Positions 3,429-17,281 of a DNA stretch of 64,000 nt are shown here, piece after piece. The notes under the pieces are model-generated. The model had not been told where the DNA came from. It did no database searches and was given only the letters and a program-made list of their open reading frames with translations. The translations under genes and the position numbers were made by a program. Source of the DNA: Escherichia phage vB_EcoM-Ro121c4YLVW; the sequence record NC_052654.1, one strand, 5' to 3'. How positions within the stretch are numbered: the first letter of the stretch is position 1; the number at the start of each line of letters is the position of its first letter.

Positions 3429-4264
3429 CATATCTGGTATTGGGCGGTAATGGACAACTGGGACAAGCTTTACGTAAAGTGGCTCCTTCAAATGTATCTT
3501 TAATTTATCCTAAAGAACGTGTAGATATTACAAATTTTGAAGCTGTGCGAAACGCTATTGTTGAAGATTATGTAGATGGTGTTATTAATTGCGCTGCTTA
3601 TACGGCTGTAGATAAAGCAGAACATGATTTTGCTACTGCTTTGGCTGTTAATTCCTACGGCCCTGCAAACATTGCAGCAGTGTGCAGTAAACTTAAAATT
3701 GATTTTGTGCATATTTCTACAGACTATATTTTTAATTACTCTCATCCTATTTTTGAAGATACTACACCTAACCCAATAAACAATTATGGGTATACGAAAG
3801 AACTTGGTGAAAAAATGGTGCGAGGAGTTAACCCAAATGCATATATTATTCGAACAGCCTCGGTATATAGCGAATTTGGAAATAACTTTCTAAAAACCAT
3901 GTTGTCTCGCTATAATGATGGACAACGTGATTTTATTATTGTTGCTGATCAGTTCTCTTGTCCAACATATGCTCCAGATTTAGCAGAAGCTATTTTTGAA
4001 GTATTAAAAACAGGTTGGTCAAGGTCTGTTAAGACTTACCATTTTGCAGGAAGCCATCTTATTTCTTGGGCGGAGTTTGCGGAAAAGATCTTGACACAGA
4101 TGCCAGAACCTGTTAAGATATCGGCGGTATCAGCTTCAACCTATAATGCTCCAGCAGCACGTCCGGTGAAGTCACAATTAGTAACCAGTCACTATCTTAC
4201 AAAATCAGATTTAAATAAAGGTATTGAACGGTCTTTAGCAGTATTACTTAATAAGGAGAGGTAA
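3422..4264 (+). CDS. rfbD: dTDP-4-dehydrorhamnose reductase
   Basis: LGGNGQLG N-terminal Rossmann motif, length and position after rfbC. Confidence 0.75.
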   Translation: MLTYLVLGGNGQLGQALRKVAPSNVSLIYPKERVDITNFEAVRNAIVEDYVDGVINCAAYTAVDKAEHDFATALAVNSYGPANIAAVCSKLKIDFVHISTDYIFNYSHPIFEDTTPNPINNYGYTKELGEKMVRGVNPNAYIIRTASVYSEFGNNFLKTMLSRYNDGQRDFIIVADQFSCPTYAPDLAEAIFEVLKTGWSRSVKTYHFAGSHLISWAEFAEKILTQMPEPVKISAVSASTYNAPAARPVKSQLVTSHYLTKSDLNKGIERSLAVLLNKER

Positions 4265-4524
4265 TGGAATTTGTAATTTTTGGTAAACCTAACTGTCAAT
4301 TTTGCGAAATGTCAAAACAACTATTAACCATGCGCAATAAACAGTTTGAATATTTAAGTCTTGACCAAGACTACGATTTAGAATCAATGACTAAAACAGT
4401 TGTTGATCTTACCGGAGTTCCTCCACGCACATTTCCACAAATTCTGTCTGAAGTGAACGGGGAGGTAACATACGTAGGCGGTTTTACCGAACTGCGTGAT
4501 CTCATGGCTCAAATTGCGGAGTAA
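4264..4524 (+). CDS. glutaredoxin/NrdC-like thiol-disulfide protein
   Basis: CQFC redox motif near N-terminus, about 86 aa, similar architecture to T4 NrdC. Confidence 0.55.
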   Translation: MEFVIFGKPNCQFCEMSKQLLTMRNKQFEYLSLDQDYDLESMTKTVVDLTGVPPRTFPQILSEVNGEVTYVGGFTELRDLMAQIAE

Positions 4525-4686: not shown

Positions 4687-5187
4687 ATGGCTAAAGTAGT
4701 AGATGAGTTTGATATGCTACGAGTCGATGAAGGACTGAAGCTTACTGTTTATCAAGACCATCTTGGTTATTGGACAGTCGGCATAGGACACCTTCTGACT
4801 AAAATAAAAGATAAAGCAAAGGCTATTCAAATCTTAGATAATCTCCTTGGTCGTAAGACCAATGGAGTTATCACAGAAAAAGAAGCCCGTCAAATCTTTG
4901 CTGACGATGTTGCAAAAGTGAAGAGAGACATAAAAAACAGTGCTATCTTATCACCAATCTATGATAAGGTGAGTGATACTCGTAAATTGGGAATAATCAA
5001 CATGGTTTTCCAGTTGGGGTTAAAAGGTGCTGAAGGGTTTAAAAATAGCTTGACTTTAATCAGCAATGCATATTATACTCAAGCAGGTAAAAACATGCGT
5101 AAAAGCCGATGGTATAGCCAGACGCCAAACCGTGCTGAACGAGTAATTAAAGTTCTGACTTCTGGAACTTTAGATGCTTACAACTAA
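4687..5187 (+). CDS. T4-type lysozyme (endolysin)
   Basis: DEGLKLTVYQD...GYWTVGIGHLLTK...NMVFQLG...AKSRWYSQTPNRAERV closely parallels T4 gene e lysozyme. Confidence 0.9.
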   Translation: MAKVVDEFDMLRVDEGLKLTVYQDHLGYWTVGIGHLLTKIKDKAKAIQILDNLLGRKTNGVITEKEARQIFADDVAKVKRDIKNSAILSPIYDKVSDTRKLGIINMVFQLGLKGAEGFKNSLTLISNAYYTQAGKNMRKSRWYSQTPNRAERVIKVLTSGTLDAYN

Positions 5188-5190
5188 TAA

Positions 5191-5206
5191 AGGGGCTTCG
5201 GCCCCT
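5191..5206 (+). other. GC hairpin (tetraloop TTCG) between lysozyme and phoH; possible attenuator/stabiliser
   Basis: aggggcttcggcccct, no strong T-run. Confidence 0.3.
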
Positions 5207-5224
5207 TCTAAAAGGAGTGCTACT

Positions 5225-5983
5225 ATGGGAAATAAAACCGCAGCTAAAACACAACGGCAGAAACTGGCTAATTCAGCAAAGATTGAAAGCCGTTATGCAG
5301 CAAAAGCGGTAGGTAATGACGATTACCGTTTAGATGAATTTATGCCTGAAGGGGACCAAAATAAGATTGTTCAAAGCATGATTTGGAATGATCTGACTGT
5401 TGTAAATGCTCCGGCAGGGACTGGTAAAACCTCTGTTGCTTTATGGAAAGCTTTGCAGATGCTTCGTTCAGGAGACTTCCGTAAACTACTTTTTATCAAG
5501 AACCCTACTGAAGTCGGAGATGACCAGATTGGTTTCTTGTCTGGGGATAAAACAGATAAACTAGCAGCACACTATGAATCTACAAAACGTATTTTCCAGC
5601 AATTCATGACAGCCAACAAATTGGAAAACGATATTGGATCAGGTAAGATCGAATTGAATATTCCTAACTATTTGTTGGGGGCTACCCTGGATAATACAAT
5701 CGTCATTATTGACGAAGCACAACTCATGTCAACAGAAACACTTAAACTTCTTATTGAACGTGCAGGTATTAATACGCATGTTATTGTATTAGGCGATGTT
5801 CGCCAGACATATGCAATTAAAAAACGTAGCAATGGTCTGCATCAAATTTTGGAACTTTTATATCCAGAAAATGAAGAAGGTGTTCGTGAGCCAATTGTAG
5901 ATTTTATTGGATACGTTGAACTGACAACGGACGATAATAAACGTGGACGTTTGTCTAAACTGATTACTGAAGTGTTTATTTAA
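5225..5983 (+). CDS. phoH: PhoH-like ATPase
   Basis: Walker A APAGTGKTS, Walker B IIDEAQ; start chosen at ATG after AAAGGAG (alternative 5174). Confidence 0.8.
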   Translation: MGNKTAAKTQRQKLANSAKIESRYAAKAVGNDDYRLDEFMPEGDQNKIVQSMIWNDLTVVNAPAGTGKTSVALWKALQMLRSGDFRKLLFIKNPTEVGDDQIGFLSGDKTDKLAAHYESTKRIFQQFMTANKLENDIGSGKIELNIPNYLLGATLDNTIVIIDEAQLMSTETLKLLIERAGINTHVIVLGDVRQTYAIKKRSNGLHQILELLYPENEEGVREPIVDFIGYVELTTDDNKRGRLSKLITEVFI

Positions 5984-6018: not shown

Positions 6019-6519
6019 ATGGGTGTAGCAACAATAGCTATCGGAAGAAGCGGTATAGATGAGTGCTATCAAACGGGACTCGTAAAACCTAACGAATTTC
6101 GTCAAATTTGTGTAAACCATATTGAAAAAGAGATTGCTCTTACTTTAGAGAATATGACCCTCCGAGATAAACTGGAAATGTTTAAATGTTGGTGTCTAGG
6201 AGAAGATTGGCTTTTAAACCATTTTCAAGAACTTTCTGATAGTAAAGAAAGCTTGTTTGATTGTATAATAGGAATAGCTGGCTCCGATCCTAGCCTTCTG
6301 CACATAACAGAAGAAGAGGCGAAGTTACTGTTCTTAAGTAATTTGTTTAATAAGAAAGCACTGCTTGTTCGTGATTGTAGTGATCTTCTTAATAACCCGC
6401 TCGCAACGTCTGATCAAATTTTTGTTGACAAAGAGACACTACGTGCGATAGAATACATCTGCAAATATGTGAATGGCGGGAAAGCGGTTCTTAAAACATT
6501 AACAGAGGAGGAAGAATAG
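6019..6519 (+). CDS. hypothetical protein
   Basis: ORF track 167 aa; RBS AAGGAGG. Confidence 0.5.
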   Translation: MGVATIAIGRSGIDECYQTGLVKPNEFRQICVNHIEKEIALTLENMTLRDKLEMFKCWCLGEDWLLNHFQELSDSKESLFDCIIGIAGSDPSLLHITEEEAKLLFLSNLFNKKALLVRDCSDLLNNPLATSDQIFVDKETLRAIEYICKYVNGGKAVLKTLTEEEE

Positions 6520-7211
6520 TGACGACAATTATTGCAACCAAAAATAAGATTTTGAGTGACGGTAAGGTAACTTTTGGTGGACGTGTAGATTCTATTAATT
6601 TCAAAAAGGTCCGAAAAATTGGAGATTACCTTGTAGGTGGTGCTGGTCGTCTGACCTCCGTGCTTTCTTTCTTTCAATGGTTTGAACAAAATCTACAGTG
6701 CGAAGCAGCACGTGATGCTGTCCCTGGTTTGATGATTCACTCTGATCCAGATAAAGAAGATGAAGAGTTTATTGCACTTGTTGTTCATCCAGACGGACGT
6801 ATTTTCCTGCACGAAGGTAATAACCCAACACGTGCATATCCGATTGATGAAGAATATTATGCGGTAGGAAGCGGGTCAGACTTTGCTTTAGCTGCTCTTG
6901 ATGCAGGGGCAACACCAGAACAGGCTATGGAAGTAGCTAAAAAGCGAGATGCTTTTTCTGGTGGTGAAACATTTATTGAAGAACAAGACGAGATTATTGA
7001 ATTAACAGATGATGATTTAGAAAACTTCTCCAAAGAAGAATTGATCAATCTTTTGAAATTCGGTAATCCCTACGGTGAAGAAGAACCTCGTAACGTGGCA
7101 GGTAACGAGGCGGATACTGAAGAAAAATCTGTTGCAGAAAACAACTTGACTTCTAAATCTGAAAATATTAATCTCGTAAATGTGGCGGATTTCGAAGGAA
7201 CCGCTATTTAA
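6519..7211 (+). CDS. HslV-like (proteasome beta-like, Ntn-hydrolase) peptidase with acidic C-terminal extension
   Basis: N-terminal MTTI (Thr after Met), GGAG and AVGSGSDFALAAL motifs as in HslV; GTG start after GGAGG. Confidence 0.65.
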   Translation: MTTIIATKNKILSDGKVTFGGRVDSINFKKVRKIGDYLVGGAGRLTSVLSFFQWFEQNLQCEAARDAVPGLMIHSDPDKEDEEFIALVVHPDGRIFLHEGNNPTRAYPIDEEYYAVGSGSDFALAALDAGATPEQAMEVAKKRDAFSGGETFIEEQDEIIELTDDDLENFSKEELINLLKFGNPYGEEEPRNVAGNEADTEEKSVAENNLTSKSENINLVNVADFEGTAI

Positions 7212-9473: not shown

Positions 9474-9803
9474 ATGGAAATTACTACAGAACAAGCCCTT
9501 ATCGACGAGGGTCGTAAAATCTTAGAAAAGTATTTAGGGGAGATTCATAAAACCCCTGGCTATTTGGGTTGGAGAATTGTTGAAGCTGTAGATTTCCTTC
9601 CTCGTAACAGTAAAAGCGTCGAAATGCGATCTCTTTTCTTATTAGTAAAGGTGGACGGGGATACACCTTTTAAAGATGCCGCAGAACATATTGAAAAAGT
9701 TGAAGAGAAAGCTTATGCAGAATTTGCCGATCTTGTTTTAGAACAAGAGATTGAAGGAAAGGTGAATATTTTTATTTTCTTAGATTTTGAGGAGGATAAG
9801 TGA
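9474..9803 (+). CDS. hypothetical protein
   Basis: ORF track 109 aa; RBS GGAGGAAGG. Confidence 0.45.
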   Translation: MEITTEQALIDEGRKILEKYLGEIHKTPGYLGWRIVEAVDFLPRNSKSVEMRSLFLLVKVDGDTPFKDAAEHIEKVEEKAYAEFADLVLEQEIEGKVNIFIFLDFEEDK

Positions 9804-10543
9804 TCATACACAGAGAAATTACTGTTAAAAGCGATCAAGATCTTTTTATAATTGGAGATCTACACGGTTGTTATAATTTGTATGAAAAAGGAAAGGCAAA
9901 GTTAGGTATCCGAGATACAGATGTGGTTGTATCTCTAGGAGATCTTACTGACCGTGGAAAGCAAAACTTTCGTTGTGTTTTAGAATTTACTCGTAAACAC
10001 AATCGCTACGCTATTCGTGGCAATCATGAAGACATGATGATTAAAGGTATGCTGGAAGGAGATCGTAGCTACTACGAGTGTTGGTATCAAAATGGAGGAT
10101 ATACGGTCTTTGAAGAATGTGGTGAAGAAGGAGCTACAGCCTTAGCAATGATGACAGAAGATTTACCTGTTGTTCTCATTGTTAACTACAGAGGCATGAA
10201 ACTTGCGTTTATTCATGGTGGGTATCCATCTTCTTTGGAATATCTCCCTGTAACAGATATTCCAGAATACATTTCGAAGATGACAAAAACACAGGAAAAC
10301 CGTTTTGCTGAAGCACTTATGTGGGACAGAGATATGGTAGACTGTGCTAAAGAGGGAATGAAACTTCCTGTTGTGATGGGTGTGGATTATGTGTTTCATG
10401 GACACTCTTATGTAAAAACACCTATTATCAATGCGAATCGTGTTTATATGGATACTGGATCTGTGTTCAATAATAACTTAACATTTGCTTATTTCGATAT
10501 GGACGGTGGTCTTCAATTTTATTCAACTCTTGAGGAGGATTAA
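9800..10543 (+). CDS. Ser/Thr protein phosphatase (calcineurin-like metallophosphoesterase)
   Basis: GDLHG, GDLTDRG and GNHE metallophosphatase motifs in canonical order. Confidence 0.75.
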   Translation: MIIHREITVKSDQDLFIIGDLHGCYNLYEKGKAKLGIRDTDVVVSLGDLTDRGKQNFRCVLEFTRKHNRYAIRGNHEDMMIKGMLEGDRSYYECWYQNGGYTVFEECGEEGATALAMMTEDLPVVLIVNYRGMKLAFIHGGYPSSLEYLPVTDIPEYISKMTKTQENRFAEALMWDRDMVDCAKEGMKLPVVMGVDYVFHGHSYVKTPIINANRVYMDTGSVFNNNLTFAYFDMDGGLQFYSTLEED

Positions 10544-10851
10544 TGTATAAGATTACAATTATTCAAAGTGTAGGTAATATCCGTAAAGAAGTTATCTTAG
10601 AAACAGAAGATGTTAATCTTGTTCGTGAGATTGTTCTTAAGGAAGATAACCTGCAAGCTGTAGAATCAGATGCACCGAATCTTATGGTGGATCAAGAATA
10701 TTCTGAACTTCGTCGTATTTTTGAAGAGATTCAGAAGAAAGAAACACAACCTACCATAAAACCTTTTGGCCCTTATGATCCGAGCAATCCTAGCAGTCCT
10801 TGGATCATGAGAAATACGGAACCCTATACACCTTTTGAAATTACTTGTTGA
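10543..10851 (+). CDS. hypothetical protein
   Basis: ORF track 102 aa. Confidence 0.4.
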   Translation: MYKITIIQSVGNIRKEVILETEDVNLVREIVLKEDNLQAVESDAPNLMVDQEYSELRRIFEEIQKKETQPTIKPFGPYDPSNPSSPWIMRNTEPYTPFEITC

Positions 10852-10858
10852 GGTGATT

Positions 10859-11440
10859 ATGGCAGAACTGTTCTATACGGGAGTTGGAAGTAGAGACATA
10901 TCCGAAGAAGAGTGGGCTTTGATGGTAGGCATAGGGAAATGGCTTTCAAACCTTGGGTTTAAATTAAGGTCTGGGAAGGCAGAGGGTAGTGATTCTGCTT
11001 TTGAAACAGGTGTCCAAGAGTCTGAAAATCCTACTAACAAGGAGATTTATGTTCCTTGGGAAAATTTCAAAGGTAATCAGATTCCAGGGGATGTTATTGT
11101 TCTTGCAAAACCAGATACAATGAACTATGCTATCTCTGTGCAATGGATCAAAGATGTTCACCCAGCCTATGAAAAGCTTAAGCAGGGTGCTAGAAAATTG
11201 CACCAACGTAATGTGCATCAAGTGTTAGGTAGAGATTTGGAGAATCCTGCTCCATCATGTTTCTTGTTGGCTTGTGCTAATACTGATAAACATGGAGATG
11301 CAAAAGGTGGAACAGCTACGGCTTGGAAGATAGCTAAAGCCAATAATGTTCCTTGTTTAAACATTCGTGGGAAAACAAAACAAGAGATTTACGATTTTCT
11401 ACGACCTTTGGTAATGAGGGCAATAACAAGTGATTCCTAA
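10859..11440 (+). CDS. DprA/Smf-like Rossmann-fold (SLOG superfamily) protein
   Basis: GVGSR...SGKAEGSDSAFETG...QRNVHQVLG...GGTATAW pattern resembles the DprA core (GSR, SGxAxGxD, RNR); start at ATG after GAGGTGA. Confidence 0.45.
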   Translation: MAELFYTGVGSRDISEEEWALMVGIGKWLSNLGFKLRSGKAEGSDSAFETGVQESENPTNKEIYVPWENFKGNQIPGDVIVLAKPDTMNYAISVQWIKDVHPAYEKLKQGARKLHQRNVHQVLGRDLENPAPSCFLLACANTDKHGDAKGGTATAWKIAKANNVPCLNIRGKTKQEIYDFLRPLVMRAITSDS

Positions 11441-11942
11441 ACGTAAACGTGGTGAACAAAGAACAAACTTGGCAGAAATCTTAGATTACAACATGGTTAA
11501 TGATGTGACAAAAGAAATTCTGCCTGTTGTAGAAGATATTCTTCAAAGAGGGTTACGATTCTGCTCGGATCGGGTGCATTTCATGTGGACACATAAAAGT
11601 GACTCCGCTTTGAATTTCTATCCTTTGGATTATACTCTGAACAATACAGAGATGAAAGATATCAACAAATACTTAATGGGATATAAAGATATAACCGAAA
11701 CCGTTCTTGGAGAATTGGCAGAAATCTTGGCTAACGATATCCTTAGAAATATTAATAAGGCTCTTGACAGAAGCCCAGCAGGAGTAGTAGTATCTTTTGC
11801 TGTGCCAGATATGGTTAAATATGAGTCTACAATACCTAATAAAGCTTATGCCTTTCTTCGGAGAGACGTTCGTGGAAATGTGTTGGAGATGGAGTCAAAC
11901 TACAAGATTGAGGAGGTTTTATGGCAGAGTTCGGATCAGTAA
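11430..11942 (+). CDS. hypothetical protein
   Basis: ORF track 170 aa. Confidence 0.4.
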   Translation: MIPKRKRGEQRTNLAEILDYNMVNDVTKEILPVVEDILQRGLRFCSDRVHFMWTHKSDSALNFYPLDYTLNNTEMKDINKYLMGYKDITETVLGELAEILANDILRNINKALDRSPAGVVVSFAVPDMVKYESTIPNKAYAFLRRDVRGNVLEMESNYKIEEVLWQSSDQ

Positions 11943-12211
11943 CAAGTTTTGAAAGTAACTTCGTTACCGCTTGGGAAGCTTGGGATGAAATGGGTGTTGG
12001 GGAACTTTATTTTTACAATGTAACACTACGTCCAGAGTATGCTTACCTGGTACCAGAAGGAACAGTTCAAATTGGCATGTATCTGTCTTCTCAAGACGGT
12101 GTTGTTCAATTTGAGTTTTATTCAAACACAACGGACAACGAATTTACATATCGTGCATTTCATGTCAACATGTCTTTAGGAGAGGAGAAATTTTATGACG
12201 ACCAAGTTTAA
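11921..12211 (+). CDS. hypothetical protein
   Basis: ORF track 96 aa; RBS GAGGAGG. Confidence 0.4.
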   Translation: MAEFGSVTSFESNFVTAWEAWDEMGVGELYFYNVTLRPEYAYLVPEGTVQIGMYLSSQDGVVQFEFYSNTTDNEFTYRAFHVNMSLGEEKFYDDQV

Positions 12212-12392
12212 AACAGTAGAAGAAGCCGTAAAAGCAGCTTATGAGGCTTTAGCGGAAGCAGAGCAGTTAGCAGATGAGACTGGTAAAGGTTTCCGTTTCT
12301 CCCCTGAATATGGGATGGGTGGCTATTATGATCCAGAAGATGAAAATGAGAATACTGGAACAAATTGGCATCCATCTTCTTTAAGTTGTTAA
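12195..12392 (+). CDS. small acidic protein, C-terminal W-x-SSxSC motif (family member 1)
   Basis: 65 aa ending NWHPSSLSC. Confidence 0.45.
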   Translation: MTTKFKTVEEAVKAAYEALAEAEQLADETGKGFRFSPEYGMGGYYDPEDENENTGTNWHPSSLSC

Positions 12393-12403
12393 TAGGAGGT
12401 AGA

Positions 12404-12679
12404 GTGGGAATCGAAGATATCAAAGGTTATAAGGCGCATACTGACGATAAGATTGGCAAGGTTAACGCTATTAAAGATGCAGAAGAGCGTTTAGGTTTAA
12501 TCTTCAAAGCTTTAGAGGAAGAGTATTGTGAAGCATATCATGGGTCTTTTGACGGCACAGAAAAAGAATTAGGTCTTGCATACGAACGTATTGATCAAAT
12601 CCGTTGTGCTATTAGACATTTAAAAGAAGCTAGTATGTGGGCTTGTCGTTCAGTTTTCCAACCAGAGGAGAAATACTAA
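12404..12679 (+). CDS. hypothetical protein
   Basis: GTG after TAGGAGGTAGA; 91 aa. Confidence 0.4.
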   Translation: MGIEDIKGYKAHTDDKIGKVNAIKDAEERLGLIFKALEEEYCEAYHGSFDGTEKELGLAYERIDQIRCAIRHLKEASMWACRSVFQPEEKY

Positions 12680-12897
12680 TGAGTGATCGTAATGTTGAAG
12701 AATTAACTGAAAAAGCCCAAGCTATTATGGCTTTAGTGGACGAACTTACAAAAGAAGCTGAAGATGCTGGTTTTGGTCTTAGTTTAGAAAATGACGCAAT
12801 CTGTTTTGAAGATTGGCAATCCTCTTCTTGTTATGGTGAAGGTGATGATGGTTTCGTCGTTAATTCTCAAGGTGTTTGGCACAGTAGTAGCTGTTAA
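12679..12897 (+). CDS. small acidic protein, C-terminal W-x-SSSC motif (family member 2)
   Basis: 72 aa; internal DWQSSSC and terminal VWHSSSC. Confidence 0.45.
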   Translation: MSDRNVEELTEKAQAIMALVDELTKEAEDAGFGLSLENDAICFEDWQSSSCYGEGDDGFVVNSQGVWHSSSC

Positions 12898-12906
12898 GGA
12901 GAGATT

Positions 12907-13179
12907 GTGGAGTCTGAAGGCGAACTGCTGATAAAAAAGAAAGTTAAAGAGATGGAACAAGCACAAAGAAAGTTTCGTAAGGAGATTGAAGAACTTTGTG
13001 AACAGTTTCAGGAACAAGCTTGGATAGGTGACTACGGTAACGGAGAAACTTATTACCCTACAGGAACGCCAGCCGCAGATCACTATATTGATTTCATTTG
13101 TGAAGATTATGGTGTAGAGTTGGATGAAAATGGTTTAACCACAAGAGGTGTTTGGATCTCTTCTTCCTCAATGTGTTAG
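12907..13179 (+). CDS. small acidic protein, C-terminal W-x-SSSSMC motif (family member 3)
   Basis: GTG start after TAAGGAGAG; 90 aa ending GVWISSSSMC. Confidence 0.45.
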   Translation: MESEGELLIKKKVKEMEQAQRKFRKEIEELCEQFQEQAWIGDYGNGETYYPTGTPAADHYIDFICEDYGVELDENGLTTRGVWISSSSMC

Positions 13180-13186
13180 TAAATAA

Positions 13187-13211
13187 TAACCCGCTTCGGC
13201 GGGTTTTTTAT
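13187..13211 (+). terminator. Rho-independent terminator
   Basis: aacccgcttcggcgggtt hairpin plus ttttatt. Confidence 0.7.
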
Positions 13212-13269
13212 TGACAGGAATCTGGAAGCTTGATAAACTTAACCTATCAACCAATAGAGGAGAAATATT

Positions 13270-14211
13270 ATGGTGTTAATTGGTAGCCGTGCATTGCAAA
13301 TTCATGCTATGGACATGGGAAAAGACTTGTATCGCCCTTGTGTAGATTTAGATTACCTGTGTACAGAACAAGAGTGGGAAGAATTATCAAAAATGTTCTC
13401 TCAAGAGGAGTTTGTTGAACTTGTAGAACGTAAAGGAAACAAAGGCCATGTCAAAATGATAGCTGGTGCACATTTGGAATACGATATTGCTTCTCAAGGA
13501 GATAGCACAGAAGCTTTGATTAGTTATTGTGAAGATTCTGATGATGTTCGTCGAACTTACGCTGGACATGTTGTTGCTCCTTTAGATGTGCTCTACCTTC
13601 TTAAAATGAGTCATCGTTTTAAAAAGGATAGTCCTCACTTCTTTAAAACTATGAAAGATATTCATTTCATGCGGTCACTGGGCGCAAAGATCCCAGAAAA
13701 TCTTAAGAGTATTTATGAGTTGCGTGAGAAAGAAACATACACTTACTCTCATCCGAACTTAAACGTAAAAAGTAAAGACTTTTTTAAAGGTGATGAGGTT
13801 CCGTATGTTTATGATCATGATTCTATCCATGAAGCAATCGCGGTAATGGATGCTCCGGCATATAAATCTTATATGAAAGATGGAAGTGAAGTTATGACCA
13901 GCAAAGAAAAGTTTTTTGCTCAACCAAAACATGTGCGCCTGTTAGGTGTTTATGAAGAAGCGTGTGTTTTGGCTTTGGAACGTTCACAAATTCCTTTCGG
14001 TGGAGAGATCGGAGGTCCAACCCCTAAGCAAAGTTTTATAATGGCTTTATCTAAAGTCTGCACATCCATCACTAGTGGTTGGTTTAGGGAATATGCTTGG
14101 GAAAACTTTTATGTTGTTATTAAGCTATATGAAAACATGGGCGAAAACGACTATGTTGAACGTTTTAAAGCTAATCAACATGTAGTAAAGCCTTTTGAAG
14201 GAGGTTATTAA
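13270..14211 (+). CDS. hypothetical protein, possibly Pol-beta-type nucleotidyltransferase fold
   Basis: N-terminal GSRAL...DLD resembles the GS...DxD NTase signature (weak); 313 aa. Confidence 0.45.
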   Translation: MVLIGSRALQIHAMDMGKDLYRPCVDLDYLCTEQEWEELSKMFSQEEFVELVERKGNKGHVKMIAGAHLEYDIASQGDSTEALISYCEDSDDVRRTYAGHVVAPLDVLYLLKMSHRFKKDSPHFFKTMKDIHFMRSLGAKIPENLKSIYELREKETYTYSHPNLNVKSKDFFKGDEVPYVYDHDSIHEAIAVMDAPAYKSYMKDGSEVMTSKEKFFAQPKHVRLLGVYEEACVLALERSQIPFGGEIGGPTPKQSFIMALSKVCTSITSGWFREYAWENFYVVIKLYENMGENDYVERFKANQHVVKPFEGGY

Positions 14212-14212
14212 T

Positions 14213-14608
14213 ATGTGTGGATATCTTTCAGAAAGTTATTTCAAAGTGACGCACGAGGATTTAGAAAAAGCACGATTGAAACTGACAGCTATTATTGAAT
14301 ACTCTAATACTGTTGATCACAGATTAAAGACTACTAAAGTATCTGTTCCTTGTTGGTTAGGTTTACGGCATAAAATAATGTCTCAACATGACCATGTTGT
14401 TCGAGAGATGCATGGTTGGTGTTGGTTTCACGATGTGGCTCTGCATTTTGGTTATATTACAGAAGAAGAGCATAGATTCTGTGAACTAACATATCGTATT
14501 CCAACCCTTCACGATTTAGATTTGTGGAAGAAAGCAAACGAGATTTTTCTTACAGAAAGTGATTGGCGTAAAGTTATGGCTTGTCTTGAATGGAGGGGTA
14601 ATGAGTAA
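14213..14608 (+). CDS. hypothetical protein
   Basis: ATG after AAGGAGG; 131 aa. Confidence 0.45.
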   Translation: MCGYLSESYFKVTHEDLEKARLKLTAIIEYSNTVDHRLKTTKVSVPCWLGLRHKIMSQHDHVVREMHGWCWFHDVALHFGYITEEEHRFCELTYRIPTLHDLDLWKKANEIFLTESDWRKVMACLEWRGNE

Positions 14609-15284
14609 AACAGTTTTGTCTATGTTTGACGGATCTGGGATCATGGTGTTACGTTATGCCGAAGCAGGTCACAAGTGTTTTTGTGTAAACGCTGATGAAG
14701 GGGATCACGGTAAATACGAGGTTAGGATGGAGCACCCAAACATAACCTATGTGAATGCCTGGATAGATTCTACATTCAACCCTGAAGATCATGGGATACC
14801 TAAACCCGATATTATTTTTGGATTTCCACCTTGCACTATGTTAGCAGGTAGTGGTAGCAAACACGAACGCAGCACAGAGGAATTGGATGAAGCTTTAGCT
14901 AATATTCGTGTAGTGGAAGCTTTGGGTAACAAATATAATGTTCCTTGGATGATTGAGAACCCAGTAGGTAAACTTTCAACCTTATGGCGTAAACCCGATT
15001 TTTACTTTGATCCTTATGAGTATGGTGGGTATTTGTTTGAAGAGGAAGGAAGCTTTCATCCTAAAATGCCTACCCGTGATGGGTATACAAAGAAAACTTG
15101 TATTTGGCACGGCAATGGTTTTGTTCAACCAGTGAAGAAACCAGTAGATCATATAGGCTGCTTCTGGGGTTGGAAAAGCTTAGGTGGAGCTAGTGCAAAA
15201 ACAAAACAACTTAGATCACTAACCGCACGTGGTTTTGCTCGTGCAGTGTTTTTGTCTAACAATCTTCTAGATAAGGAGAAATAA
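14601..15284 (+). CDS. C5-cytosine DNA methyltransferase-like
   Basis: Motif I LSMFDGSG, motif IV FGFPPC, motif VI ENP; start after GGAGGGG. Confidence 0.6.
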   Translation: MSKTVLSMFDGSGIMVLRYAEAGHKCFCVNADEGDHGKYEVRMEHPNITYVNAWIDSTFNPEDHGIPKPDIIFGFPPCTMLAGSGSKHERSTEELDEALANIRVVEALGNKYNVPWMIENPVGKLSTLWRKPDFYFDPYEYGGYLFEEEGSFHPKMPTRDGYTKKTCIWHGNGFVQPVKKPVDHIGCFWGWKSLGGASAKTKQLRSLTARGFARAVFLSNNLLDKEK

Positions 15285-15937
15285 TGTTAAATTCAAAACC
15301 AGTGGTTGCTTATCAAGTAGATCGTAATGATGGTGAAGGAAGTGTTGTTATTTTCAGTACACACGGTCTTGAGGCTCGTCGAAAAGGTGCATATCGTTTA
15401 GAATGTGAGTTTGAAGACTGCACAAGCCACCGTGTCAAACAATTCGATCAATATGCTGATAAAGGCTTCGTCCCTATCAAAGCGTTACTGGAAGATGGTT
15501 GGTGGGTATATTCTGCTTTTGATTACTCAAAACTGGAGGAGTCAGCTTCGTGCGCCTCCGAGATCGAATATGATGATTACTATGACACTCTATACCTTCC
15601 AGAATGGCTTGTCTTTTCTCCTGATGAGAGAAGTGTCTGGAAAACGTGGGAAGAAATGGAGAGACATGCGTATAGCATCAATGAAGCTTTAGATCGTAAA
15701 ACTTGGTTTATTGAGGCAGTAAAGGCGGCATACCCCCAATTCTCATTCTGTGATTTCACTGGCGGCCCAGGATACATTACACATACAGCCTCTTTTGAGT
15801 TTCCTGGTTCACGTTATAAGGGTAATGTTTATTGGGACTGGGATGAAAATAAACAACCTTCGGCTCAAGACTTCCGTTGCTATGTTTGTCAAGGCGATCA
15901 AGAAGCCCTTGACAAATACCTACAAAATCTGGTATAG
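15284..15937 (+). CDS. hypothetical protein
   Basis: ORF track 217 aa, coupled to MTase gene. Confidence 0.45.
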   Translation: MLNSKPVVAYQVDRNDGEGSVVIFSTHGLEARRKGAYRLECEFEDCTSHRVKQFDQYADKGFVPIKALLEDGWWVYSAFDYSKLEESASCASEIEYDDYYDTLYLPEWLVFSPDERSVWKTWEEMERHAYSINEALDRKTWFIEAVKAAYPQFSFCDFTGGPGYITHTASFEFPGSRYKGNVYWDWDENKQPSAQDFRCYVCQGDQEALDKYLQNLV

Positions 15938-15954
15938 TGCCAGCATCTGAACAA

Positions 15955-15984
15955 AGCCTCCTGTTTCAGGGGGCTTTTCTTTTA
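15955..15984 (+). terminator. Rho-independent terminator
   Basis: gcctcctgtttcagggggc hairpin plus ttttctttt. Confidence 0.55.
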
Positions 15985-15995
15985 TAGGAGGGAAT

Positions 15996-16481
15996 ATGTT
16001 TCAAGTAAATGTCAATGTGCATAATAGTTACTCTGATTGTGAAACGTGTGGCTATAATTCATCTAATGTTATTCGTATTAGTGGCGATTTAGGAGAAGCT
16101 TCTTTTGGAGAAGAAGCAAGTTGCTTTAGTGGTATGGATGCAGAATGGAATGATATTGCACATTGGTTAGTGAGCAAACTAAAAGAAAAAGAGAAACCAT
16201 TTCCTACTCTGCTTGATCGTTCTCTTGTGGAAGATGCAGGTAAAGCATATGCAGACTATGCGTATGCAGACGGGAAATATTTGGAAGATGATAAGGCTAA
16301 CCATTTGCTTTATGTTTACTATGAAGCTGAATCTGCCTACGATAATTATTACAGCATGTCTAACATCCTACGTCTGTTTGCAGAGTTTGATATTTATTTC
16401 GAAGTAGAATTTTCAGAAGATGATACTTACGAGTACAATTCTTATGATCCATTTGAGGAGGAAGAATGCCAAGACGAGTGA
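15996..16481 (+). CDS. highly acidic protein (possible DNA mimic)
   Basis: 161 aa, D/E/Y-rich C-terminal half; overlaps Sir2-like start by 16 nt. Confidence 0.45.
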   Translation: MFQVNVNVHNSYSDCETCGYNSSNVIRISGDLGEASFGEEASCFSGMDAEWNDIAHWLVSKLKEKEKPFPTLLDRSLVEDAGKAYADYAYADGKYLEDDKANHLLYVYYEAESAYDNYYSMSNILRLFAEFDIYFEVEFSEDDTYEYNSYDPFEEEECQDE

Positions 16482-17281
16482 TTTTTGTAAGCGGTGCAGG
16501 TTTAAGTGCAGACAGTGGGATTCGAACATTTAGAACAGACACAGATAGTGGTCGTGCTTTATGGGAAGAATATGATTTAGAAGAGGTCTGCGATATTGGA
16601 GCTTTCCAAGCAGGTTATCGTGTTAGAACATCTCCAGATCTTCCAGTGGTCGGTGGTGTAGACGAGAACGGTATGGATTTGTATGCCAAAACACACGAAT
16701 TTTATAACAAAAGACGTGTTGAGCTTAAAGATGTACAACCTAATGCTGCACATATTCAAATAGCAAAGTGGTTTAAGGAATATCCTAACCAAATAGTAAA
16801 CTTGACAACAAACGTTGATGATCTACTAGAGCGAGCAGGTGTAGACAGAGATTCTGTTATTCACGTACACGGATATCTTCCTGAAGTAGTTTACCGTATG
16901 CATCCCGGAGATTACAAAACACTGGTAGATATTGGTTACAATAGTATAAACATAGATGATTATAACTGGGTGAAGCCTAATGTTGTATTTTTTGGTGAGG
17001 CTGCACCTTTGTATGCAGATATGGCTCACTTGTTCGATACTTTGACCATGCAAGATTTGGTTGTAGTAGTAGGATGTTCAAACCAAGTTATCAATTTTAA
17101 TTGGGAATTATTTCCTGCACTTAGTATGGGTACAAAAATGGTTGTAGTTAACCCTGGAGTTAATTACGAAGAAACACTTCTCTATGAAGATCGTGGAGTT
17201 TTTGTTTACCGAGAAAAAGCTGCAACAGCCTTCAGCAATGAAGGTTTCATTAAAATGGTCGAAGACCACTTAAACAAATAA
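16466..17281 (+). CDS. Sir2-like (sirtuin-family) NAD-dependent protein
   Basis: GAGLSADSGIRTFR NAD-binding motif, HVHG and VVVGCS motifs. Confidence 0.65.
   Translation: MPRRVIFVSGAGLSADSGIRTFRTDTDSGRALWEEYDLEEVCDIGAFQAGYRVRTSPDLPVVGGVDENGMDLYAKTHEFYNKRRVELKDVQPNAAHIQIAKWFKEYPNQIVNLTTNVDDLLERAGVDRDSVIHVHGYLPEVVYRMHPGDYKTLVDIGYNSINIDDYNWVKPNVVFFGEAAPLYADMAHLFDTLTMQDLVVVVGCSNQVINFNWELFPALSMGTKMVVVNPGVNYEETLLYEDRGVFVYREKAATAFSNEGFIKMVEDHLNK

Follow-up and report, generated by a model that had tools for sequence, protein, structure and literature searches.

The genome of the Escherichia phage vB_EcoM-Ro121c4YLVW (NC_052654.1), of which we analysed a stretch of 64,000 nucleotides (the window), encodes between positions 12195 and 13179 three small acidic proteins that share a C-terminal tail rich in serine and ending in cysteine. 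We show here that these proteins belong to a large, old and almost exclusively phage-borne family, PHROG 899, and that the genes of this family are linked to one enzyme-like gene across phage lineages that otherwise share nothing locally. This gene, located in the window at 13270-14211, specifies a protein composed of the Pfam domains DUF7277 and DUF7275. Judging from the sequences and their genomic context, we favour, with a rough probability of 45%, the interpretation that the DUF7277+DUF7275 enzyme has the small proteins as its dedicated partners, most probably as acceptor substrates, for which the tail would serve as a common recognition or acceptor site.

Three paralogous genes with a common C-terminal tail

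All three genes lie on the plus strand. The first (paralogue 1, 12195-12392) encodes a protein of 65 amino acids with an isoelectric point (pI) of 4.31 and a net charge of -8, whose single cysteine is the last residue and whose tail reads NWHPSSLSC (codons 12366-12389). The second (paralogue 2, 12679-12897; 72 amino acids, pI 4.05, net charge -13) has the motif twice, as an internal DWQSSSC (12814-12831) and a terminal VWHSSSC (12877-12894), and the third (paralogue 3, 12907-13179; 90 amino acids, pI 4.40, net charge -10), which starts with GTG and contains a YGNGETYYP loop, ends in VWISSSSMC (codons 13153-13176). The open reading frames (ORFs), their tails with the additional internal copy, and the acidity of the products are as described in the first-pass annotation of this DNA, which had proposed that the proteins might be precursor peptides or substrates for a C-terminal modification. 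Each gene is preceded by a strong Shine-Dalgarno sequence: GGAGAGGAG-N-ATG in paralogue 1, GAGGAG-N-ATG in paralogue 2 (overlapping the stop codon of the upstream gene), and AAGGAG-N-GTG in paralogue 3.

When the whole window was searched in six frames for the pattern W..S[SN].{0,2}C followed by a stop codon, it was encountered only at these three ORFs; mononucleotide shuffles of the sequence contained it 0.08 times on average and never more than once. The phrog_899 hidden Markov model (HMM) matches all three proteins over its C-terminal 70-75 positions (E-values of 1.2e-12, 1.4e-5 and 5.1e-14 for paralogues 1, 2 and 3, respectively), and they are therefore homologues rather than look-alikes. 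The HMM matches and the shuffles together rule out chance or an ORF artefact as the source of the tails. The serine codons of the tails are drawn from the TCN and AGY families alike, which means that the constraint acts on the protein, ruling out a constraint at the level of DNA or RNA.

The window phage is a member of Phapecoctavirus, i.e. a phAPEC8-like Escherichia myovirus. Its region 11400-14300 shares 99.9% identity with phage vB_EcoM-Ro121lw and no less than 98.9% with any of the 20 matches listed, mostly Phapecoctavirus genomes. The T4-like phage JS98 possesses five tandem paralogues, and the best scores of the three window proteins against their JS98 counterparts are 54.7, 43.1 and 35.4 bits, compared to 17-18 bits against their own neighbours. 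The nearest JS98 counterpart of paralogue 1 is the ORF at 4196-4477 of the JS98 locus (EF469154.1, our locus L002), and paralogue 2 is orthologous to a JS98 ORF that has the motif doubled as well (4914-5138; 43 bits, as opposed to at most 18 bits to its own neighbours). Since the window proteins are closer to their JS98 counterparts than to each other, the paralogues must be ancient. The same JS98 locus includes, at 4694-4903, a 69-amino-acid member of the family ending in GFWFSSSMSC, which apparently represents an unannotated gene between orf127 and orf126.

A large phage protein family defined by its tail

When 1.84 billion cluster representatives were searched with a profile, 271 clusters of the family at 50% identity were retrieved, and a tblastn search with paralogue 3 as the sole query matched 414 phage records. 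Homologues occur in T4-like, Phapecocta-like, jumbo, Otagovirus, Lazarusvirus and Ackermannviridae phages, with one to five tandem copies per genome. Conservation of the tail among homologues had been set beforehand as a check on the proposed modification, and the tail indeed turned out to be the most conserved feature of this very large family. Following an N-terminal amphipathic helix, a near-invariant consensus G-x-W-x-x-S-S-x(0-2)-C occupies the exact C-terminus, as exemplified by relatives, close and distant, that end in GVWISSSEMC, GAWVSSSDMC, GFWFSSSMSC and KIWYPSSC. The last residue is cysteine in 188 of 198 sampled proteins, with seven more having a penultimate cysteine; the spacing is W-x-[SPA]-S-S-x-x-C in 181 and W-x-x-S-S-C in 11 of them, and the tryptophan and the two serines are conserved at 97-100%. 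In an alignment of 27 sequences the G, W, S and C of the tail are all invariant.

The 194 representatives for which we calculated general properties have a median length of 86.5 amino acids, a median pI of 4.4 and a median net charge of -9. The terminal cysteine is the sole cysteine in 98 of them, a [YWF]G.G match corresponding to a YG-x-GG-x-Y-x-P loop is present in 148, and extra internal W-x-x-S-S copies in 32. Members range roughly from 50 to 150 amino acids, with the longer ones (139-173 amino acids) carrying an N-terminal extension on the same core of helix, strand and tail.

PHROG 899 is catalogued without a function, a described motif or a described partner gene; the record of phage Schickermooser, 99% identical to the window, carries the CDD identifier PHA02102 for paralogue 2. 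The small tail proteins found no match in PADLOC, Pfam or PDB. A literature search on PHROG 899, PHA02102, DUF7275, DUF7277, the RB69 ORF names and anti-defence proteins with a C-terminal cysteine returned nothing relevant. According to the JS98 record, counterparts of the tail and DUF7275 families in phage RB69 are RB69 ORF134c, 136c, 137c and 139c. Nolan et al. (PMC1524935) reported 750 ORFs without T4 orthologues in five T4-like genomes, which judging by the ORF names include RB69; names of the RB69ORF type appear among the novel ORFs of that paper.

Two further products encoded upstream of the trio have endings that partly recall the tail. That of the gene at 11430-11942 (phrog_8569) ends in EEVLWQSSDQ, i.e. 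a W-x-S-S ending devoid of the cysteine, and that of the gene at 10543-10851 (phrog_15301) ends in PFEITC, with a terminal cysteine; neither is matched by the HMM of the tail family.

A single gene accompanies the tail genes across phage lineages

A first sign of linkage came from a distant metagenomic member of the tail family (P0114), whose gene is immediately followed by a DUF7277+DUF7275 gene. We examined the linkage in both directions, starting from the enzyme gene (35 loci) and from distant tail proteins (six contigs). In the former direction, tail genes are found just upstream of the enzyme gene in 31 of the 35 loci. The largest part of these comes from a scan of IMG/VR, which provided 23 loci with enzyme genes 42-77% identical to that of the window, residing on contigs of about 150 kb, 165-171 kb and 355 kb and on shorter fragments. 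In 20 of the 23, one to five tail ORFs precede the enzyme gene on its strand, mostly at distances of up to about 2.5 kb, and none of the 23 has a tail ORF downstream of the enzyme gene or on the opposite strand. The same arrangement is seen in four of four GenBank phages of other genera, namely Pseudomonas phage psageK4e (Otagovirus), Acinetobacter phage AC4 (Lazarusvirus), Ralstonia phage RSP15 and the jumbo Erwinia phage Hallingskeid. A scan of prokaryotic genomes, with one genome for each of 185,579 species, revealed only eight DUF7275 loci, all of them on contigs of metagenome-assembled genomes and seven with tail genes upstream, so the module appears to be phage-borne.

In the opposite direction, we looked up six distant representatives of the tail family. 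In all five contigs that could be assessed, a DUF7275 gene is separated from the tail gene by zero to one gene downstream (hmmsearch E-values from 1e-50 to 1e-95); the sixth contig stops 290 bp past the tail gene. When the neighbouring genes were clustered, wide sharing was limited to the enzyme and the tail family, any other cluster being present in at most nine of 27 loci. The numbers of records per host genus matched by the tail family and by DUF7275 are likewise similar (249 and 258 for Escherichia, 34 and 35 for Klebsiella, 34 and 36 for Enterobacter, and 18 and 18 for Shigella), and both families are absent from positions 1-68 kb of the T4 genome, which cover the syntenic early region. 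The first-pass annotation had noted the gene at 13270-14211 as nucleotidyltransferase-like while stating that no modifying enzyme was identifiable in the window; the former remark agrees with a motif-level resemblance, and the latter has to be revised, as this very gene, the only one to travel with the family across unrelated lineages, is a candidate for such an enzyme. In one metagenomic contig with the module (L037) a protein with the ART-PolyVal domain (ADP-ribosyltransferase of polyvalent proteins) is encoded at 6083-6670, two genes downstream of the DUF7275 gene.

The DUF7277+DUF7275 protein carries a nucleotidyltransferase-like signature

The conserved partner gene (13270-14211, plus strand) encodes a protein of 313 amino acids, in which Pfam recognizes DUF7275 with an E-value of 7.5e-76 and an N-terminal DUF7277 with an E-value of 1.1e-13. 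The partner family comprises 2208 clusters at 90% identity, and its sequences have diverged much less than those of the small proteins: in 28 sequences 51-81% identical to the window protein, more than 50 alignment columns are invariant. The N-terminal approximately 90 residues include G5-S6, D26-x-D28 and E70, set in a beta-helix-beta-...-beta context and invariant in all full-length loci; this GS / DxD / E (hEh) pattern resembles the signature of Pol-beta nucleotidyltransferases (NTases), from which we infer that DUF7277 may be an active NTase. The C-terminal domain is highly conserved, too, and rich in His, Asp and Lys, with invariant K112, H115, H123, H161, H183-D184 and H187 and a block K[VI]C[TS]SITSGWFRE. 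A DUF7275 protein 100% identical to that of the window is encoded by MG065650.1 (150,742 bp, a length expected of a Phapecoctavirus genome), a record labelled 'Campylobacter phage B15', for which the host label looks doubtful and a mislabelling or contamination is possible.

Phage-encoded NTases that make competitor cyclic dinucleotides, one of them from the Phapecoctavirus Av05, were described by Ho et al. (bioRxiv 10.1101/2022.06.09.495361), who defined them by the motif GS-x-AY[GAN]T-x4-SDxD accompanied by NP-x-h2[DE] about 60 residues later. These proteins and the DUF7277+DUF7275 protein are alike in being minimal NTase-like enzymes encoded in early accessory regions of phages. Nevertheless, the motif rules out that the partner is one of them: the only ORF of the window with a GS...DxD arrangement is the DUF7277 gene, which has GS-x19-DxD and differs from the motif of Ho et al. 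in both spacing and residues. The motif does fit the N-terminus of T4 NrdC.11 (GSHLYGTSTPESDVD; locus L050, 6436-7446), hence the two are separate families.

Several lineages depart from the common arrangement. The ORF that directly precedes the DUF7275 gene of the Brevibacillus phage Sundance (L031, 3669-3956) ends in EEEEYSSSYYEEEEYSSSYYEED, with no cysteine, and contains the motif EEYSSSYY (EEEEYSSSYY) twice. The Streptomyces phage Blueeyedbeauty (L032, 4582-5280) and the Vibrio phage R11Z (L033, 3070-3366) encode a separate small family with GYYDSWDSTYWDG or YSYYSYHGYDNYG motifs, and their DUF7275 proteins are short forms of 253 amino acids. These aromatic and serine-rich small neighbours of divergent DUF7275 genes may be alternative partners, and their recurrence without the cysteine tail, admittedly in few samples, fits an enzyme that recognizes or modifies hydroxyl-rich motifs. 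Three IMG/VR loci (L010-L012, DUF7275 gene at 5001-5921) have GRFRT where all tail-linked enzymes have GWFRE; these are the only IMG/VR loci lacking nearby tail genes, and in L012 the DUF7275 gene is split into two ORFs. We also considered a possible co-variation of the invariant Cys264 of the partner with the terminal cysteine of the tail and found it unconvincing: the short Streptomyces and Vibrio forms do lack both, but Cys264 is present in Sundance, where no neighbouring product ends in cysteine, and in L010-L012, where tail genes are missing.

A compact predicted fold incorporates the tail

For paralogue 3, AlphaFold2 produced from the 27-sequence alignment a model with a mean predicted local distance difference test score (pLDDT) of 94.5 and a predicted template modelling score of 0.79, with the last residues at a pLDDT of 87. 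The predicted fold, for which no relative was found in PDB, is compact and consists of a 31-residue N-terminal helix (residues 4-34) and a small sheet. The tail contributes strand 82-85, which holds the tryptophan, and a helical turn at 86-89, which comprises the serine run and is followed by the final Cys90. Because the tail makes up the last strand and the terminal turn of the predicted fold, its tryptophan and glycine are probably structural; the invariant Ser-Ser pair and the obligatorily terminal cysteine are the likely functional atoms.

Genomic surroundings of the tail genes

The first-pass annotation had described the three tail genes as adjacent; this is not strictly so, as another gene (12404-12679, plus strand) intervenes between paralogues 1 and 2. 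Its 91-amino-acid product lies outside the tail family and belongs to the Acb2/Tad1-hairpin family of sponges (PF24729, E-value of 9.4e-17), which counteract the cyclic-oligonucleotide-based anti-phage signalling system (CBASS), and it is 64% identical to T4 Vs.4. The three paralogues are contiguous, with no Acb2 gene among them, in a contig from a 77%-related phage (L006), so the Acb2 gene looks like an insertion into the array in the lineage of the window phage. T4 Vs.3 and Vs.5, which flank Vs.4, were considered as potential homologues of the tail proteins and dismissed, both being without the tail, and the possibility of a frameshifted relic of the tail within T4 vs.5 was rejected as well. 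The tail proteins share with Acb2/Tad1 sponges their small size and a presumably early expression in phages, and their array harbours an Acb2 gene; however, they match neither PF24729 nor any PDB structure, and the Acb2 gene is apparently a lineage-specific insertion.

The upstream operon is closed by an intrinsic terminator-like element on the plus strand (13188-13213), formed by the hairpin AACCCGC-TTCG-GCGGGTT (13188-13205) and a T-run; a terminator following the trio had been noted before, and one is also annotated in the Schickermooser record. Between it and the enzyme-like gene there is a sigma-70-like promoter on the plus strand (13211-13239; TTGACA-17-TAAACT with an extended TG), identified as a consensus match only. 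In JS98 a MotA-box-like middle promoter is located 86 bp upstream of the array, and late promoters are absent. These promoter-like matches in the window and in JS98 suggest early or middle expression.

The wider early region (9800-17281) is an accessory, anti-defence-like neighbourhood. The Schickermooser annotation places here a NinI-like Ser/Thr phosphatase (9800-10543), a DprA-like protein (10835-11440), a Dcm-type DNA methyltransferase (about 14601-15284) and a Sir2-like protein (16466-17281). Together with the embedded Acb2 gene, the genes for a DNA methyltransferase and a Sir2-like protein in the vicinity suggest a possible role of the tail proteins in anti-defence or host takeover.

What might the module do?

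The idea that the small proteins are substrates for a modification at the C-terminus remains plausible and is strengthened by the linked DUF7277+DUF7275 gene. Under this scenario, one enzyme would act on the shared tail of several small proteins. The hydroxyls of the Ser-Ser pair would receive a nucleotide-derived group next to the free C-terminal cysteine, the terminal thiol or carboxylate might take part in the transfer, and each paralogue would owe its own target in the freshly infected cell to its diverged acidic body, be it for host take-over or anti-defence. By analogy, the chemistry might be a nucleotidylylation or another transfer that leaves a nucleotide-derived group on the serine hydroxyls, a specific proposal that is unlikely to be correct in just this form. 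Somewhat less doubtful, if still far from probable, is the broader notion of a widespread, almost phage-specific module working as a protein-tagging or cofactor-loading system, in which the NTase-like enzyme would covalently modify the tails and so either switch on the diversified small acidic effectors or arm them with a group derived from a nucleotide.

Parallels exist among known systems. NTases of the Pol-beta fold modify hydroxyls of small partner proteins in the pairs GlnD-PII, CitX-CitD / MdcG-MdcC and MntA-HepT. The likeness lies in an enzyme with the GS / DxD / E pattern standing beside small acidic proteins with invariant hydroxyls, but DUF7277 has no sequence or profile similarity to these enzymes, and the predicted acceptor here is a serine of the C-terminal W-x-x-S-S-x-x-C tail, with several diverged acceptors per enzyme and in a phage setting. 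A C-terminal cysteine serving as a carrier arm is known from HypE (C-terminal PRIC) and TusE/DsrC (penultimate Cys), which resemble the tail proteins in having the cysteine at the very C-terminus or next to it. There is, however, no homology to these proteins, the prediction for the tail is a folded structure and not a flexible arm, and a context of sulfur relay or hydrogenase maturation is missing. No known system joins arrays of proteins with an invariant C-terminal W-x-x-S-S-x-x-C to a dedicated NTase-like enzyme; judging from its genomic context and motifs, the module would fall outside the known kinds.

Several observations speak against the small proteins being acceptors of an NTase. The DUF7277 domain of 28 members matched no curated NTase or HD model even at E-values up to 10, the partner has no PDB relative detectable by sequence, and its GS-to-DxD spacing is 19 residues, compared to 9-13 in classical NTases. 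With a single-sequence AlphaFold2 model of the partner unusable as well (pLDDT of 34.5), the NTase assignment derives from the motif. The loci L010-L012 possess the enzyme gene with no tail gene within 5 kb, and in the model of paralogue 3 the tail does not project as a free arm but belongs to the fold. In the window phage, the terminator and the promoter between the trio and the enzyme gene imply that they are not co-transcribed. Finally, a common pathway can be enough to keep genes next to each other, with no direct relationship of enzyme and substrate.

Such a looser association is what would be expected if the small proteins were stand-alone early effectors (inhibitors, decoys, mimics of DNA or proteins, or ligand sponges), with the tail being structural or metal-binding, possibly through terminal cysteines of several protomers sharing a metal, and with the DUF7275 gene being a neighbour only via a common pathway or early accessory region. 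We regard this as possible, yet on balance rather unlikely. It accords with the small size and strong acidity of the proteins, reminiscent of many anti-restriction and anti-defence proteins, with the tandem diverged paralogues, the Acb2 sponge gene inside the array and the DNA methyltransferase and Sir2-like genes nearby, as well as with the position of the tail inside a compact predicted fold, the transcription signals that part the trio from the enzyme gene, and the JS98 middle promoter in the absence of a late one. It nevertheless leaves unexplained why the pairing with DUF7275, seen in both search directions, persists across lineages that have no other common neighbour. Moreover, half of the family has a single cysteine, so any metal site would need oligomers, and, as stated above, the small proteins resemble nothing in PADLOC, Pfam or PDB. 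Still less likely, in our opinion, is a regulatory or antitoxin-like relationship, in which the DUF7277+DUF7275 protein, as an NTase, would target a different substrate, such as tRNA or nucleotides (cf. MenT/AbiEii-type and KNTase-like enzymes), with the small proteins being its inhibitors, activators or specificity subunits docking by the common tail. The conserved order of small gene(s) followed by a gene for a protein of about 310 amino acids, with an NTase core and a helical C-terminal domain, and the much higher conservation of the enzyme would suit such a pair, and the partner motif K-x-S-H-R-x7-F-x-K-T-x-x-D-I presumably recalls the C-terminal K...R...D motifs of DUF1814 NTases. Yet no DUF1814 or other NTase model matches the partner, one to five diverged paralogues per enzyme would be unusual for an antitoxin, an addiction module would be of no evident use to a strictly lytic phage, and simple binding would not explain the invariance of the Ser-Ser pair and the terminal cysteine.

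The possibility raised in the first-pass annotation that the proteins are precursor peptides has fared worst. Formulated in terms of ribosomally synthesized and post-translationally modified peptides (RiPPs), it would have the Ser/Cys tail processed, by serine dehydration and cysteine addition or by oxidative decarboxylation of the aminovinyl-cysteine (AviCys) type, and the peptide released. A serine two to four positions before a C-terminal cysteine is the AviCys geometry of epidermin-type peptides, and the tail proteins share with the precursors of epidermin and cypemycin the small size, the always terminal cysteine with an invariant serine upstream at that distance, and the occurrence of several tandem genes beside one enzyme-like gene. 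Unlike such precursors, they are predicted to be folded proteins of 65-150 amino acids, with the tail included in a confidently predicted compact fold, and they combine a constant tail with a variable body, which is the opposite of leader and core logic. No homo-oligomeric flavin-containing cysteine decarboxylase (HFCD), dehydratase or other known RiPP maturase is linked: the conserved neighbours and the 28 partner members include no LanB/C/M/D, YcaO, radical S-adenosylmethionine, protease or exporter gene. No leader-cleavage motif is present, and the producers would be lytic phages. We therefore consider RiPP-like precursors very improbable. The proposal that the small proteins are acceptor substrates of the DUF7277+DUF7275 enzyme predicts a mass shift of the tail that depends on D26/D28 of the enzyme and on the Ser-Ser pair and the terminal cysteine of the small proteins.

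Implications

Hundreds of diverged clusters maintain a cysteine exactly at the C-terminus, an unusual constraint that calls for an explanation even if the enzyme does not modify the tails. PHROG 899, DUF7277 and DUF7275 have so far been catalogued only as orphan families, and their association in one module offers a handle on their function. If the interpretation favoured here is true, hundreds of sequenced phages, including T4-like, Phapecoctavirus, jumbo, Pseudomonas, Acinetobacter, Ralstonia and uncultured ones, would carry a previously unrecognized system of an enzyme and its substrates, situated in early accessory regions where anti-defence genes cluster. Should the enzyme in fact switch on or arm them, the tail proteins would constitute a novel class of phage effectors that depend on an enzyme for activation and act early in infection.

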